Shown one piece after another: positions 17,980 to 53,883 of a stretch of 64,000 nt of DNA. The notes below the pieces were generated by a model. It saw only the letters and a list, made by a program, of their open reading frames with translations, was not told the DNA's origin and made no database searches. The translations under genes and the position numbers were made by a program. Where the stretch lies: the sequence record NC_028448.1; one strand, written 5' to 3'. The number at the start of each line of letters is the position of its first letter. The stretch's first letter is position 1. Source of the DNA: Escherichia phage slur14.

Positions 17980-19974
17980 TTATGGATAGGTATAGATGAT
18001 ACCAGTTTCTAAAGCAGTTTTATGAATGATGTATCCATTACGCGATTCTTGGACATCAACTTCTGGATAGTCTTTCATCATCTTCTGAAGAGTGTAACGA
18101 TGCAGGTAGTATTTACTATCTGGATCTTCAGTTTTCCAATCTTTACCTTCTTCGGTCATTTTTTGGATTTCATCCATAACCCACCAACCGCACCAGATGT
18201 AAGCTGAAGTGCGATGTGGAAGAGGATGAACATAAGGCAATTCACCTTCTGGTTCTGGAGCAACTTTATCAGTTACCTGAACTTGACCTTCTGCTGTGAT
18301 AGTTTTGCTATCATAATCAGTAGCAGTAACAGTTGCAGTAACTTCAATAGTTTGACTTCCAATAGATGATGTATCAACAGTGTATACATTAGTTGACCCT
18401 TCTACTGGAGAAGAATCTTTCTTCCATGAATATTCGATTTGTGCTTCTTCTGGAGCATCCGTAACATTAGCAGTAAATGTAGCCGAAGCATCTTGCTGAA
18501 CGTTAATAGAAGGAGGAGTCAATGTAACCCGTGGATTCATTGTTTTCTTATTAACAGTCAATGATACTTCATTAGAAGTAACTTCCTTTTCATTGTAATT
18601 TTCTGCAGTTACTTGCGCTACACACTTAACTGTTTTAGCTCCAACTGTGGTAGGAGTATAGTTAAATGTAGTAGTAGTTTCTCCATCGACCAGAGAACCG
18701 TCAACATACCACTGATACGTAGCAGACGCTCCTGGTGGCTGTGAAGCCAAGGCAGCAGTAAATTGAACTGGGGTTCCAATTACTGCTGCAGCAGGATTAG
18801 CAGGAGTTACGGCTAACGTAGTTGTCTGTGTTTTCTTATTAACTGTTAATGATACTTCATTAGAAGTAACTGTTTTTGCGTCATAATCTGTTGCTGTTAC
18901 TTGCGCTACGCATTTAATTCTTTTTACTCCACTTGTAGTTGGAGTATAGCTAAATGTAGCAGAAGTCGCTTCACCAATTTGAGAATCATCTACATACCAC
19001 TGATACGTAGCAGATGCCCCATCAGGTTGAGAAGCTAAGGCAGCAGTAAATTCAACAGCTGTTCCGATTACTCCGGCAGCAGGATTAGCAGGAGTTACAG
19101 ATAGGGTAGTCGTTTGTGTTTTCTTGTTAACAGTCAAAGATACTTCATTCGAAGTAACTTCCTTTTCATTGTAATTTTCAGCAGTTACTTGGGCTACGCA
19201 TTTAATTCTTTTAACCCCACTTGTAGTTGGAGTGTAATTGAACGTAGCATTAGTTTCTCCACCAACTTGTGAATCATCTACATACCACTGATACGTAGCA
19301 GATGCTCCTAGCGGCTGCGAAGCTAAGGCAGCAGTAAATTGAACTGGGGTTCCAATTACTCCTGCTGGAGGACTATCAGGAGTTACTGCCAAAGTAGTTG
19401 TCTGCTCCTTTTTATTAACAGTCAGTGATACTTCATTAGAAGTAACGCTTAGTGCATCATAATCTGTCGCAGTTACTTGAGCCACACACTTAATTCTTTT
19501 TACCCCGCTTTCGGCAGGAGTGTAATTGAACGTAGCGTTAGTTGCTTCGTCTACAGGAGAACCGTCAACGTGCCATTGATACGTAGCGTTTGCACCTGAT
19601 GGCTGTGAAGCTAAGGCAGCGGTAAATTCAATTGGAGTTCCAATCACTCCAGCATCAGGGCTATCAGGAGTTACTGCCAACGTAGTTGACTGAGTTTTAT
19701 TTTTAACCGTGATAGTCGTAGTAATTTCTGCTGTTTCGGGACTACTATCGGCAACTTGATTTGTTGCAACAACTTTAATTGTTTTTGTTCCAGCAGGTCC
19801 TTTTAATACATAATTAAAAGTTGCTTCAGCTCCATCTTGTGGAACATCATCTACGCTCCAAGCATATGTAATAGGTCCATCTCCAGTTTGACCACTGGGT
19901 GTAGCAGTAAACTGCTGAGTCTGATCTATAACTCCAGTGGTGTTTTTAGGAGTTATATCAACTGTAAAAGTCAT
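17980..19974 (-). CDS. hoc: Highly immunogenic outer capsid protein Hoc, expanded Ig-like domain array
   Basis: 664 aa; N-terminal Ig-like domain, four near-identical ~96 aa repeats, a further Ig-like domain, and C-terminal capsid-binding segment ...YIWCGWWVMDEIQKMTEEGKDWKTEDPDSKYY as in T4 Hoc. Confidence 0.85.
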   Translation of the reverse strand: MTFTVDITPKNTTGVIDQTQQFTATPSGQTGDGPITYAWSVDDVPQDGAEATFNYVLKGPAGTKTIKVVATNQVADSSPETAEITTTITVKNKTQSTTLAVTPDSPDAGVIGTPIEFTAALASQPSGANATYQWHVDGSPVDEATNATFNYTPAESGVKRIKCVAQVTATDYDALSVTSNEVSLTVNKKEQTTTLAVTPDSPPAGVIGTPVQFTAALASQPLGASATYQWYVDDSQVGGETNATFNYTPTTSGVKRIKCVAQVTAENYNEKEVTSNEVSLTVNKKTQTTTLSVTPANPAAGVIGTAVEFTAALASQPDGASATYQWYVDDSQIGEATSATFSYTPTTSGVKRIKCVAQVTATDYDAKTVTSNEVSLTVNKKTQTTTLAVTPANPAAAVIGTPVQFTAALASQPPGASATYQWYVDGSLVDGETTTTFNYTPTTVGAKTVKCVAQVTAENYNEKEVTSNEVSLTVNKKTMNPRVTLTPPSINVQQDASATFTANVTDAPEEAQIEYSWKKDSSPVEGSTNVYTVDTSSIGSQTIEVTATVTATDYDSKTITAEGQVQVTDKVAPEPEGELPYVHPLPHRTSAYIWCGWWVMDEIQKMTEEGKDWKTEDPDSKYYLHRYTLQKMMKDYPEVDVQESRNGYIIHKTALETGIIYTYP
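18541..19692. repeat. Four tandem ~288-bp direct repeats inside hoc
   Basis: Unit boundaries at 18541, 18829, 19117, 19405 (recurring tgttttctt(a/g)ttaac motif); each unit encodes one Ig-like repeat. Confidence 0.8.
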
Positions 19975-30752: not shown

Positions 30753-30756
30753 CAAT

Positions 30757-30786
30757 GGGGACCGAAAGGTCCCCATATTTTTATTT
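30757..30786. terminator. Bidirectional terminator between gene 54 (+) and a convergent minus-strand ORF
   Basis: GGGGACC-GAAA-GGTCCCC hairpin followed by atatttttattt. Confidence 0.7.
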
Positions 30787-31071
30787 ACGGAATGAAATGA
30801 AAGCAGCAACTGAAGCAACTAAACCGTCTTCAATATAAACTTCAATTTTTACAGGAGCTTCTGACTCAAATTTACCTGTTACTACACCCTGAAAAATACT
30901 TTCAGTCTGTTCTGGCTTTGAAAAATTTTCAGAAGGAAAAATTCCAAACTTTTTATCTGTTCCGAAAATTTTGATAAATTCATCGTAAACCGCTTCGTTA
31001 AAAGCATTATCAGCAGGAATAACGCCTTCAACTACAAGTTCTTGACCTAAAAAGCGTAAAGAAGATTTCAT
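30781..31071 (-). CDS. Hypothetical protein (alt.-3 position)
   Basis: 96 aa ORF; RBS gagga 7 nt upstream; driven by the 54-bp early promoter cassette. Confidence 0.55.
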   Translation of the reverse strand: MKSSLRFLGQELVVEGVIPADNAFNEAVYDEFIKIFGTDKKFGIFPSENFSKPEQTESIFQGVVTGKFESEAPVKIEVYIEDGLVASVAAFISFRK

Positions 31072-31078
31072 TTTGTGT

Positions 31079-31132
31079 TCCTCATGTTATGTCAGTAAGA
31101 CTACTATAACACAACACGAGGGACTTGTAAAC
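31079..31132 (-). promoter_or_regulatory. Conserved early promoter cassette, copy 1 (TTTACA-17-TATAGT plus leader and SD)
   Basis: 54 nt identical to 45355-45408; minus strand gtttacaagtccctcgtgttgtgttatagtagtcttactgacataacatgagga then ATG. Confidence 0.65.
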
Positions 31133-31492
31133 TACATTTTGAACTTTTTAGTACGCGGAATAGGCATGCGTCGATTTTATACTGTTTCATTGTTTGAAGA
31201 GCAGTATCAAAAACAGCATTAATGACACCAATTGGATTTCCACTCAAGTTTTTAAGCTTAACTAATGATAGTTTCTCATTAACACCTATCATTACGATAT
31301 GCATCATTTTGTCGCCTGGTTTAACGTTTTATCTGTATCACCGCCAGAGGTGTATGTACAAAATCTAAATCCAGGAAGCACGCTTTCTTCGCCGGCTTGA
31401 ATAGCAAAAATTTGTGGTATTTTATGCTTAGGATTTAAGTTAACAACCGGCGCCGAAGCGCCGTCAAATAATTATGTAATAAGTTCCATGAT
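31104..31492 (-). pseudogene. Decayed duplicate of the alt 5' region (first ~125 codons): premature TAA at codon 6 and a frameshift; residual 67-codon ORF 31104-31307
   Basis: About 70% DNA identity to alt 33230-33586 by eye; translates MELIT*...PQIF...GFRFCTYTSGGDT...MMHIV...MKQYKIDAC versus Alt N-terminus. Confidence 0.6.
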
Positions 31493-33586: not shown

Positions 33587-33638
33587 CATATCCTCTCTAG
33601 TGTTTATTCTATTTATAAAATTAAAGGCCCGAAGGCCT

Positions 33639-37568: not shown

Positions 37569-37946
37569 TTAAATATCAAATTCGTTAAGAACTACATCAA
37601 AGATTGCTTCAAGATGCTCAGGTTTAGCTCTGTTACTCAGAATATGACGAATCCAAGTTTTAACCAGAAGCTTGCGATTAACGCCATTCCAGCAAGGATG
37701 AGTCCCTAAATCGCGTTGACGAAAATCATCATCCAAAGCAATTTTGAAGTTGGAACCTTCCATTGTGATTGAAACCGTGATGCCATTTTCAAATCGCATA
37801 TAAACGTAGTTAGGAGTCATATACTGTTCAATTTCGCATACTGATCCATTTTGATGTTTCCAAAGGCAGATGGTATCAATAGAACCTGCAATACCATTAG
37901 AAACATATTTACGTTCAAAGTTAATGTAGTTCATTTTATTCTCCAA
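37569..37946 (-). CDS. Hypothetical protein
   Basis: 125 aa ORF; RBS ggagaa. Confidence 0.5.
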   Translation of the reverse strand: MENKMNYINFERKYVSNGIAGSIDTICLWKHQNGSVCEIEQYMTPNYVYMRFENGITVSITMEGSNFKIALDDDFRQRDLGTHPCWNGVNRKLLVKTWIRHILSNRAKPEHLEAIFDVVLNEFDI

Positions 37947-37963
37947 GATGTTTAATTGCGGTA

Positions 37964-38000
37964 CAGGTATATAATATCATGTCCTGTACCAAAGTAAACA
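37964..38000 (-). promoter_or_regulatory. Candidate early promoter (GTTTAC ... TGaTATTAT) overlapping an 8-bp inverted repeat
   Basis: Minus strand gtttactttggtacaggacatgatattatatacc upstream of ORF 37569-37946. Confidence 0.35.
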
Positions 38001-38001
38001 A

Positions 38002-38334
38002 TTATTTTACTACTTTCCAATGCTGCATGTCAAGTTTACCAACTTTTTTCATCTTCTCAATTAAGCGTTCGGCACGTTGGCGAGCTGTAACATAATACCA
38101 TTCACCTAATTCATTTTGTTCAATTTTTCCAACGATTACTGTATTCAATTCATAAATCCAACCAGTAAAGAAATTATGAACTTGAATTGTAAAGGTGAAA
38201 TCTGTTCCCATACCTTCTGTTGTTTCTACTTCAATAATATCACCTTCAACTGCCATTAAGAACCACATAGTTTCATCATATTTACCATTGAAGCATTTAG
38301 TTTTAACTGCAGCGTTCAGATTAATCGTTTTCAT
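38002..38334 (-). CDS. Hypothetical protein
   Basis: 110 aa ORF; RBS aaggag. Confidence 0.5.
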   Translation of the reverse strand: MKTINLNAAVKTKCFNGKYDETMWFLMAVEGDIIEVETTEGMGTDFTFTIQVHNFFTGWIYELNTVIVGKIEQNELGEWYYVTARQRAERLIEKMKKVGKLDMQHWKVVK

Positions 38335-38359
38335 TTTATTCTCCTTTGTTTGTGTAAGA

Positions 38360-38392
38360 TAATACTATCACAAAGGAACCATACTGTAAACA
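38360..38392 (-). promoter_or_regulatory. Candidate early promoter (TTTACA-17-TAGTAT)
   Basis: Minus strand ttgtttacagtatggttcctttgtgatagtattatc ~25 nt upstream of ORF 38002-38334. Confidence 0.4.
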
Positions 38393-42023: not shown

Positions 42024-42085
42024 TTCAATTTCCTCATTTGTTTTGGTAGAGCTATAATATCACAACTCTACCGTAAAGTAAACTA

Positions 42086-44503: not shown

Positions 44504-44853
44504 TTAGAAAGGTCCTGGATGTCTTCTGCGAACTTGTTGAAGGAGTTGTTGATTTGTTTTTCAACCAATCCTGGCTTATGAGCCACCACATCCGCCTTCT
44601 TTGCGTCTTTGCGCAGTTTTTCATTTTCACGCTCAATAGCAGCAATTGCCTCACGATTTTTATTATTCATCGCATCAATATAATTATACTGAATTCGCAA
44701 ATTGTTTAATGCTAAAGCGTTTTCATTGGCCGTTTTTGTAATTTCTACAACAGACGTTTCTAATCTTTCAATTTTATTTTTTAAAATTAAAGAAGTTCCG
44801 CCCAATGCAATTACAATTAATAGCAAACCTGTTGTCGTATTACTTAATTGCAT
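44500..44853 (-). CDS. Inner-membrane spanin (i-spanin)
   Basis: 117 aa; N-terminal TM segment TTGLLLIVIALGGTSLIL then predicted coiled-coil periplasmic domain. Confidence 0.55.
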   Translation of the reverse strand: MQLSNTTTGLLLIVIALGGTSLILKNKIERLETSVVEITKTANENALALNNLRIQYNYIDAMNNKNREAIAAIERENEKLRKDAKKADVVAHKPGLVEKQINNSFNKFAEDIQDLSK

Positions 44854-45347
44854 AAAGTTTTAATAACCTCTATAATATCGTCTTGAGAAAGACCGTTAAT
44901 TAAAATATGATGTTCCGCCGGAGATTTAGAAATTTTAAAGCATGCCGCAACATCTTCTGCCATATCTGATGCACTACGATTTGGATTACTAATCCCAAGG
45001 CGGTGTTTTCCCGTTAAAGGATTAACGATGATATAGCATTTACAGTTGTTAACATGAACATTAGGTTGAGTCTGATTAATGAACACATCACAATCATATT
45101 TCGCAAGCTGATTTTCTAAAAAGACTTTCATCTCCTCAACCGCATCAGGAAGCATATCACGGGCTTGCTCAAGACGACGATTTCGATATTCTTTAATGGT
45201 CGTTTTCCGCTTGACTTGCTTAGCTAAATCTTTCTTAAGATCGGTGATATATCCAACTCGACGATTTCCTTTGAATACAGAAATCCCATCTGTAGTATCA
45301 CCGTATGCTTCAACGACCATTTCAGTAGTAATAAGTTGTAAATCCAT
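44844..45347 (-). CDS. alc: Alc (host transcription shut-off) protein
   Basis: 167-168 aa; N-terminus MDLQLITTEMVVEAYG; driven by the 54-bp early promoter cassette. Confidence 0.8.
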   Translation of the reverse strand: MDLQLITTEMVVEAYGDTTDGISVFKGNRRVGYITDLKKDLAKQVKRKTTIKEYRNRRLEQARDMLPDAVEEMKVFLENQLAKYDCDVFINQTQPNVHVNNCKCYIIVNPLTGKHRLGISNPNRSASDMAEDVAACFKISKSPAEHHILINGLSQDDIIEVIKTLCN

Positions 45348-45354
45348 CATAAAG

Positions 45355-45408
45355 TCCTCATGTTATGTCAGTAAGACTACTATAACACAACACGAGGGAC
45401 TTGTAAAC
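45355..45408 (-). promoter_or_regulatory. Conserved early promoter cassette, copy 2 (upstream of alc)
   Basis: 54 nt identical to 31079-31132; -35 TTTACA, 17-nt spacer, -10 TATAGT, leader with SD gagga. Confidence 0.65.
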
Positions 45409-45411
45409 AGC

Positions 45412-46999
<1,588 letters not shown>

Positions 47000-53821: not shown

Positions 53822-53849
53822 TTTCTTTTCTCCATTAGTTTTGATAGGG

Positions 53850-53883
53850 TAATAGTATCACACTACTACCCTTCTGTAAACTA
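53850..53883 (-). promoter_or_regulatory. Candidate early promoter (TTTACA-17-TACTAT)
   Basis: Minus strand gtttacagaagggtagtagtgtgatactattacc upstream of the micro-ORF and ORF 53500-53742. Confidence 0.4.

Follow-up and report, generated by a model that had tools for sequence, protein, structure and literature searches.

A repeated early promoter of T4-type phages with a predicted hairpin that pairs the promoter spacer with the Shine-Dalgarno sequence

The genes alt.-3 and alc of Escherichia phage slur14 and its relatives are preceded by the same 54-nt cassette, in which the motifs of a T4-type early promoter are followed by a short leader and a Shine-Dalgarno (SD) sequence, and in which the promoter spacer is complementary to the leader and SD. 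We propose that the cassette is an early promoter of the promoter-early stem-loop (PeSL) type whose hairpin hides the SD and so acts as a gate on translation, that it originated at alc, and that it was copied onto alt.-3 by ectopic gene conversion. To this reading as a whole, we assign a probability of about 0.6.

The promoter is textbook T4 biology, the pair is present in T4, and the idea of a portable cassette has been published. What we add, all of it computational, is the predicted anti-SD hairpin gate, the putative origin at the alc locus, and evidence suggesting concerted evolution of the two copies. We found no paper on complementarity between early-promoter spacers and SD sequences in the accessible full texts, and this complementarity may have been described before.

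Results and discussion

A 54-nt repeat at two loci

The DNA analyzed here (the window) is a stretch of 64,000 nt from phage slur14 (NC_028448.1). It is 100% identical to sequence of Escherichia phages slur03 and slur08, which belong to Tequatrovirus, and its gene order is that of T4 (NC_000866). Features needed in the following sections are listed by position in the window.

30755-30776, both strands: terminator-like hairpin in the interval between gene 54 and alt.-3, with a T-rich tail that is clear on the plus strand
30781-31071, minus strand: alt.-3 ORF (96 aa), downstream of copy 1; its homologue is early in T4
31079-31132, minus strand: copy 1 of the repeat, with promoter motifs, upstream of alt.-3
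31131-31126, 31108-31103, 31096 and 31083-31079, minus strand: parts of copy 1, namely -35 TTTACA, -10 TATAGT (preceded by TGn), predicted +1 (A) and SD GAGGA
31104-31307, minus strand: alt.-2 remnant ORF (67 aa), upstream of copy 1, with its stop codon TAG inside the -10 hexamer
33610-33617, minus strand: T4 late-promoter motif TATAAATA, just upstream of alt
44844-45350, minus strand: alc ORF (inhibitor of host transcription), downstream of copy 2
45355-45408, minus strand: copy 2 of the repeat, with promoter motifs, upstream of alc
45407-45402, 45384-45379, 45372 and 45359-45355, minus strand: parts of copy 2, namely -35, -10, predicted +1 and SD
45412-46572, minus strand: rnlA (gene 63), upstream of copy 2, with its stop codon 3 nt before the cassette

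Direct reading of both stretches agrees with the original prediction, made from this DNA alone, of a perfect 54-nt repeat at two loci, the second of them upstream of alc. Positions 31079-31132 and 45355-45408 are identical at 54 of 54 nucleotides, both on the minus strand, and the coding (minus) strand of the unit reads GTTTACAAGTCCCTCGTGTTGTGTTATAGTAGTCTTACTGACATAACATGAGGA. The flanks of the two copies are unrelated, and identity ends sharply on either side. The search for further copies that the prediction had called for found none in the window: a pattern search permitting up to three mismatches returned these two sites in total. An independent repeat search paired the same two copies, at 100% identity and a spacing of 14,276 nt. 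Among other promoter-like sites in the window that carry GTTTAC, the next most similar pair matches at 39 of 54 positions, and most pairs match at about 19 to 30. Matches to the 54-mer occurred in none of 100 dinucleotide-preserving shuffles, which rules out a chance repeat.

A blastn search with the 54-mer found about 498 phage records and 995 places overall, including T4, T6 and RB33, with two places per record in all 60 records that were sampled. An assembly artefact is ruled out by the presence of the pair in these many records. Orthologous copies are 94-100% identical across the approximately 498 records, and a pattern scan of IMG/VR yielded 10 loci that resolve into 5 genome pairs. The cassette pair is a standing feature of the T4 genus and is not peculiar to the window. 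In T4, the pair (NC_000866, ~123.09 and ~136.34 kb) is orthologous, with the same flanking genes and early class, and shows no substantive difference from that of the window; the T4 alc copy is identical to the window 54-mer, and G40A is the single change in the T4 alt.-3 copy. The two copies differ from each other at one position in T4 and at five in T6, and the window carries the state with no differences.

A repeat of another kind is found at window positions 18541-19704, where four tandem units of ~288 nt with 76-84% identity lie inside a coding region. By its position, this region may be hoc, which encodes repeated Ig-like domains.

Promoter motifs and expression class

Cassette positions are numbered from G1 of GTTTAC. 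The 54-mer then contains TTTACA at positions 2-7, a 17-nt spacer that ends in TGT (the TGn element, positions 22-24), TATAGT at positions 25-30, and the SD sequence GAGGA at positions 50-54, with an ATG 5-8 nt downstream of GAGGA in both copies. The T4 alc annotation begins at the second ATG. The predicted +1 is A37, which is placed by spacing only. The architecture of T4 early promoters consists of UP, -35, TGn and -10 elements (Hinton, PMC2988021). Comparison with the T4 early consensus, also proposed at the outset, shows a fit of both copies in the -35 element, spacer, TGn and -10 element (GTTTACA, 17 nt, TGT and TATAGT). Directly upstream of the -35 element, where an A/T-rich UP-like region would lie, copy 1 has CTAAAAAGTTCAAAATGTA; copy 2 is preceded there by 25 nt that belong to the coding sequence of rnlA, CCCAGAAGGATACTAAGCT, and A-tracts lie farther off.

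Judged by these motifs, both copies are standard T4-type early sigma-70 promoters, which are ordinary T4 biology. The motifs named in the original prediction (-35 TTTACA, 17-nt spacer, -10 TATAGT and SD GAGGA) are all present on the minus strand, and its interpretation as an early promoter with a short leader stands. In time-resolved omics of T4, alt.-3 and alc are early at both the RNA and the protein level, and alt, alt.-1 and alt.-2, which are directly upstream of the alt.-3 copy, are classified as "middle" RNAs (PMC9697503, supplements). This step from middle to early across the T4 alt.-3 copy is what an early promoter at that spot predicts. A promoter is also annotated at the homologous 30 nt of the alt.-3 copy in phage Lutter (NC_054924).

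We infer that host sigma-70 RNA polymerase starts at approximately A37 (window positions 31096 and 45372). Such a start would leave an 18-nt leader within the repeat, ending in the SD GAGGA, and the resulting RNA would support immediate-early translation of alt.-3 and alc.

Neighbouring genes and transcripts expected to enter the cassettes

Both copies lie where RNA from upstream genes can be expected. The rnlA stop codon is only 3 nt before copy 2, so rnlA transcripts can read into it. On the other side, alt is preceded by the late motif, and a consensus scan of the minus strand between alt and alt.-3 found no terminator-like site; late alt RNA should therefore cross copy 1 into alt.-3. The late-promoter motif TATAAATA is absent from both copies of the cassette. 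Downstream, the hairpin at 30755-30776 is a perfect, GC-rich 9-bp stem flanked by two genes that converge on it, the late gene 54 on the plus strand and the early gene alt.-3 on the minus strand; the annotation of phage Lutter has a terminator at the homologous place. This hairpin is likely the end of the alt.-3 transcription unit. The alt.-3 gene is nonessential, and mutants with a C-terminal extension of its product escape CmdTAC (PMC11618068).

The ORF upstream of copy 1 has a history of its own. Phages FriedrichMiescher, T6, PP01 and others carry a full-length second alt gene (Alt2), and in these relatives the same intact cassette comes right after the Alt2 stop codon, whose TAG overlaps G1. 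By comparison with FriedrichMiescher, the window and T4 are without 1,699 bp of Alt2. The deletion junction, at window positions 31151-31152, is a 9-nt imperfect match (8/9), CTAAA(G/A)AGT, located 19 nt upstream of the cassette, and a separate 1-nt indel splits the Alt2 residue into alt.-1 and alt.-2.

It had been suggested that the cassette was how the alt-like remnant and the 96-aa ORF came to be expressed. As to the remnant, the cassette is downstream of alt.-2 and so cannot express it; the remnant is the product of a separate deletion whose junction is outside the cassette, and a link between the two is ruled out. As to the 96-aa ORF, alt.-3 has an early promoter in four other genera, so the cassette replaced a promoter and did not activate a silent ORF.

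A predicted hairpin that includes the SD

The original prediction, sound as to the promoter, missed an inverted repeat inside the cassette. The spacer (CCTCGTGTTGTGTT) and the leader plus SD (GACATAACATGAGG) are reverse complements of each other; the spacer sequence CCUCGUGUUGUGUU is complementary to GACAUAACAUGAGG, and the SD is within the stem. The 54-mer folds with a predicted -22 kcal/mol (z -5.4), and none of 200 shuffles folded as well. Positions 12-25 pair with 40-53 and positions 28-31 with 36-39, leaving a bulge at 26-27 and a loop at 32-35, which is GUCU in copy 1. The SD is predicted to pair through positions 12-15 with 50-53 (CCUC/GAGG), as part of an 18-bp helix. In the window, the hairpins are placed as follows.

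31080-31121, minus strand: hairpin of copy 1, with its 5' arm at 31121-31102 (spacer and -10) and its 3' arm at 31097-31080 (leader and SD)
45352-45402, minus strand: hairpin of copy 2, with arms at 45397-45378 and 45373-45356

Copy 2 has four additional basal pairs, AAGU (45402-45399) with ACUU (45355-45352), which extend 3 nt past the 3' end of the repeat. A search of Rfam gave no relevant family match at E ≤1.

Since the spacer is complementary to the leader and SD, RNA derived from upstream contains both arms. The predicted start, A37, is inside the hairpin, in its apical stem. RNAs that begin at A37 have predicted folds of -1.8 and -4.5 kcal/mol with z ~0; that is, they are unstructured.

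These folds suggest a gate. Read-through RNA, which at copy 2 would come from rnlA and the genes before it and at copy 1 from middle and late transcription of alt, would contain both arms and form the 18-bp helix, with the SD buried. RNA begun at the embedded promoter would be without the 5' arm, leaving its SD free and translatable. In this way, the cassette would tie translation of the downstream gene to that gene's own early promoter. The upstream stop codons bear on how tight such a gate might be. The Alt2 stop overlaps G1 and the alt.-2 stop lies in the -10 element, and ribosomes terminating there could partly open the base of the stem, the outcome being coupling and not a block.

Comparison with known systems

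For the PeSL cassettes known from T4-like phages (Arbiol et al. 2010, PMC2839356; Comeau et al. 2014, PMC4122927), the PST/T4 early consensus is TTTACW N17 TAYWAT. They are repeated in the genome and have been proposed as substrates for recombination, and their stem-loop has been read as a terminator or attenuator (PMC2839356, PMC4122927). The cassette at alc and alt.-3 shares with PeSLs the sigma-70-like early promoter, a stem-loop that overlaps the -10 element (among the commonest PeSL layouts), repetition in the genome, a 3' end that carries the SD and start codon, and a beginning at an upstream stop codon (3 nt away for rnlA, overlapping G1 for Alt2). On these features, it falls within the published PeSL definition, and the earlier idea of a portable cassette corresponds to the PeSL concept (PMC2839356, PMC4122927). 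However, in contrast to PeSLs as published, the predicted stem reaches and buries the SD, and no U-tract follows it. Also, recombination of PeSLs is by excision and insertion, whereas for alc and alt.-3 we infer non-crossover conversion between copies that are 14 kb apart and flank essential genes. With respect to the recombination and indels associated with PeSLs, exchange between copies is what the haplotypes described below point to, and the 1,699-bp deletion ends 19 nt upstream of the cassette and not in it.

A second comparison is to the T4 genes e, soc, 49 and I-TevI, whose SD is held in a helix on long transcripts, while RNA from an internal promoter is without the 5' arm and can be translated (PMC3014915). 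The two systems are alike in that the SD is paired (here, by prediction) in RNA started upstream, and an internal promoter produces RNA without the 5' arm. They differ in the class of that promoter. In e, soc, 49 and I-TevI, it is a late promoter, and the arrangement delays translation (Uzan and Miller 2010, PMC3014915); in alc and alt.-3, it is an early sigma-70 promoter, and translation is predicted to be restricted to RNA started early. By analogy, an early gate would be the temporal mirror image of these late gates.

Conservation of the hairpin within and across genera

Among 18 distinct variants of the cassette within Tequatrovirus, 93% of cells stay paired. Those seen often (27C, 32A, 33A and 34T) map to the loop or bulge, others preserve pairing (15T, 16A, 40A and 42T), and there is one compensatory pair, 15T/50A. 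One frequent variant, A29, breaks a G-C pair and improves the -10 element to TATAAT. Variation is scarce, and covariation within Tequatrovirus is not significant, as the observed level is reached by 92 of 500 shuffles.

At the alc locus of other genera, spacers are different, and each pairs with its own SD region. Predicted hairpins there have folding energies of -17.6 kcal/mol (z -3.8) in Dhakavirus (Bp7, AnYang), -24.2 kcal/mol (z -7.1) in Karamvirus (KMB20), -23.4 kcal/mol (z -6.3) in Moonvirus (NM4.3), and -18.2 kcal/mol (z -3.5) in Klebsiella phage Mexia; that of Marfavirus F48 is weaker (-12 kcal/mol, z -2.9). Mosigvirus alc has no such hairpin, and Gaprivervirus alc has a different one. 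In Gaprivervirus (SP18, TH55), alc itself has been split or duplicated, giving alca and an N-terminal fragment, alcb; the promoter is upstream of alcb.

Alignment with MAFFT followed by RNAalifold did not recover the helix across genera, because the hairpins are shifted relative to the -35 element. We therefore used per-sequence folds and an alignment-free comparison of cognate and non-cognate spacer/TIR duplexes. Cognate duplexes average -17.4 kcal/mol versus -9.5 kcal/mol for non-cognate ones, and the cognate assignment is the best of 120 permutations. The 3' arm is TIR sequence that is conserved generally, so part of this apparent covariation is one-sided evolution of the spacer. As judged by these predicted structures, the case for selection on the hairpin is stronger across genera than within Tequatrovirus.

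Spacer/SD pairing in other early promoters

Strong spacer/SD pairing in the window is confined to the two copies (-21.7 and -20.8 kcal/mol; matched by none of 300 shuffled spacers). Separately, a promoter at 38334-38391 on the minus strand (G1 at 38391), upstream of a 110-aa ORF that corresponds to T4 gene 30.8, has a weaker pairing, TCCTTTG with CAAAGGA, at -11.3 kcal/mol (1 of 300 shuffles). Another arrangement is seen on the minus strand at 42030-42083, 53828-53881 and 37946-37999. These GTTTAC early promoters have strong inverted repeats that embrace the -10 element (z ~-4; for example, GGTAGAG...CTCTACC) without including the SD, and the hairpins are PeSL-type stem-loops.

A scan of the T4 genome (OZ035787.1) found 30 GTTTAC cassettes with an SD and ATG, all on the strand of the early genes. 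The cognate duplex is -15 kcal/mol or stronger in seven of the 30, compared with 11 of 870 non-cognate combinations. This count was reached in none of 20,000 permutations, and each of the seven was matched by 0 of 500 shuffled spacers. Five cassettes are thereby added to the pair at alc and alt.-3, near 8.2, 53.9, 62.8, 65.4 and 166.8 kb of NC_000866. The ORF downstream of the one at ~62.8 kb has 153 aa, which is the size of RegB.

With seven of 30 T4 cassettes paired in this way, the alc/alt.-3 cassette belongs to a recurrent design. We tentatively suggest, at somewhat less than even odds, that this subset of T4 early promoters is "self-licensing", with the spacer serving as an anti-SD arm, and that one such module was copied from alc to alt.-3 and homogenized by conversion. 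A self-licensing gene would be translated only from the RNA of its own early promoter and would be silent on middle or late read-through RNA.

The foremost alternative is that the stem-loop serves mainly as a terminator or attenuator, or as a 3'-end stabilizer, for transcripts of rnlA and of alt or Alt2, and that SD pairing is incidental. In phages RB49 and phi1, PeSL stem-loops lowered the expression of lacZ placed after them to a degree similar to the rrnB T1 terminator (PMC2839356), the annotators of phage SA20RB (OL960581) marked the alt.-3 copy as a rho-independent terminator using WebGeSTer, both upstream ORFs end at the cassette or within 3 nt of it, and three other early promoters of the window have the -10 hairpins just described, which stop short of the SD. 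However, our consensus scan for terminators picked out neither copy. A U-tract after the stem is absent at alt.-3, where the sequence is AACACAAAAUG, and likewise in the alc cassettes of Dhakavirus, Karamvirus, Moonvirus and Mexia, which are A-rich at this point. Moreover, complementarity in five or six genera includes the SD and tracks its flanks, and the seven T4 cassettes have spacer/TIR pairing that is specific to the cognate partner. We regard the terminator explanation as unlikely.

Origin of the alt.-3 copy

Four outgroup genera were examined at both loci, and each has an early promoter at alt.-3 and at alc. At alt.-3, their cassettes differ in the spacer, are predicted to form no hairpin (z ~0), and share with the 54-mer the ends GTTTACAAG and (A)ACATGAGGAA. 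An SD-pairing hairpin occurs at alc in five or six other genera and is absent at alt.-3 in these four, which argues that the alt.-3 copy was imported. The Tequatrovirus alt.-3 cassette thus probably came from alc. In the proposed scenario, the hairpin interior of alc was copied onto an existing alt.-3 promoter in an ancestor of Tequatrovirus by ectopic gene conversion. Copying would have been bounded by the shared anchors GTTTACAAG and AACATGAGGA, would have preceded diversification of the genus, and would have left two copies that still exchange sequence.

A new insertion at alt.-3, such as integration of a PeSL mini-circle that gave expression to a silent ORF, has precedents in the PeSL-mediated excision and integration documented for RB49 and phi1 (PMC2839356) and in the variable region next to the site, where Alt2 is full-length or a remnant depending on the phage, but is very improbable given that no extra DNA accompanies the cassette, that gene order at alt.-3 is unchanged in the four outgroup genera, that all four already have a GTTTAC promoter and ATGAGGA SD at the same place, and that the Alt2 junction with its 8/9 match is 19 nt upstream and not at the cassette.

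Probable continuing exchange between the copies

Exchange was assessed in 18 genomes with both copies; they were selected because they carry variants, and they are related by descent, which makes the P values below approximate. The copies differ at 0-5 positions, and no difference between the loci is fixed in the 18 genomes. Seven of the eight variable alc sites also vary at alt.-3 (hypergeometric P = 7e-5). Six derived alleles are common to both loci, and four haplotypes recur at the two loci, among them A29+A32 and A32+T34, each defined by two sites. Phage ACG-C40, for example, has 27C at both loci, and its alc copy also has an extra G in the SD (GAGGGA). Copies within a genome differ at 2.22 positions on average versus 2.66 between genomes (permutation P = 0.025), and the within-genome mean of 2.2 is close to the diversity among orthologues, which is 2.0 for alc and 3.0 for alt.-3.

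Recombination between orthologous loci cannot move haplotypes from one locus to the other, and ectopic gene conversion is therefore favored. Continuing ectopic conversion combined with purifying selection appears to be the best explanation for the similarity of the copies. The original prediction had taken perfect identity as a sign of strong selection or recent conversion; both find support, although the identity itself is not general, as T4 and T6 illustrate. Recurrent mutation at tolerant sites could mimic some of the shared polymorphism.

Could purifying selection common to both loci have kept the copies alike on its own, with no transfer after an ancient duplication or a convergence? A function is plausible for most of the 54 positions (-35, TGn, -10, stem arms and SD), and the 94-100% identity among orthologues is what such selection might produce. 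However, the same derived haplotypes of two sites turn up at alc and at alt.-3 in different genomes, fixed differences are lacking even though 8-13 sites are polymorphic at each locus, shared variants fall at loop positions 32-34, which have no obvious constraint, and outgroup alt.-3 promoters have a different spacer without the hairpin. Selection alone is in our estimation quite improbable, and conversion together with selection remains the preferred explanation.

A crossover between the copies would delete 14 kb in which ligase and gene 31 lie, and for this reason survival is expected of non-crossover events only. Outside Tequatrovirus, close similarity is seen between the cassette at alc in Mosigvirus p000v and that at alt.-3 in Dhakavirus Bp7, with the sequence GTTTACAAAC(A/G)CCAAGGATGGTG... 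This likeness suggests that exchange across loci may occur in other genera too, possibly in the opposite direction.

Conclusions

If the gate is real, it is a simple cis rule that would keep early proteins early despite pervasive read-through transcription, and Alc, the RegB-sized product and other early products would come under the same rule. It would also explain why whole blocks from promoter to SD are conserved, and not just the hexamers, and PeSL stem-loops would gain a second, translational function. For engineering of alt.-3 or alc, the predicted coupling means that spacer and SD would have to be considered together, and alt.-3 is relevant to escape from CmdTAC. Finally, the alc/alt.-3 pair would be a compact natural case of concerted evolution of viral regulatory DNA, and could be used to measure ectopic conversion over 54 bp of homology.
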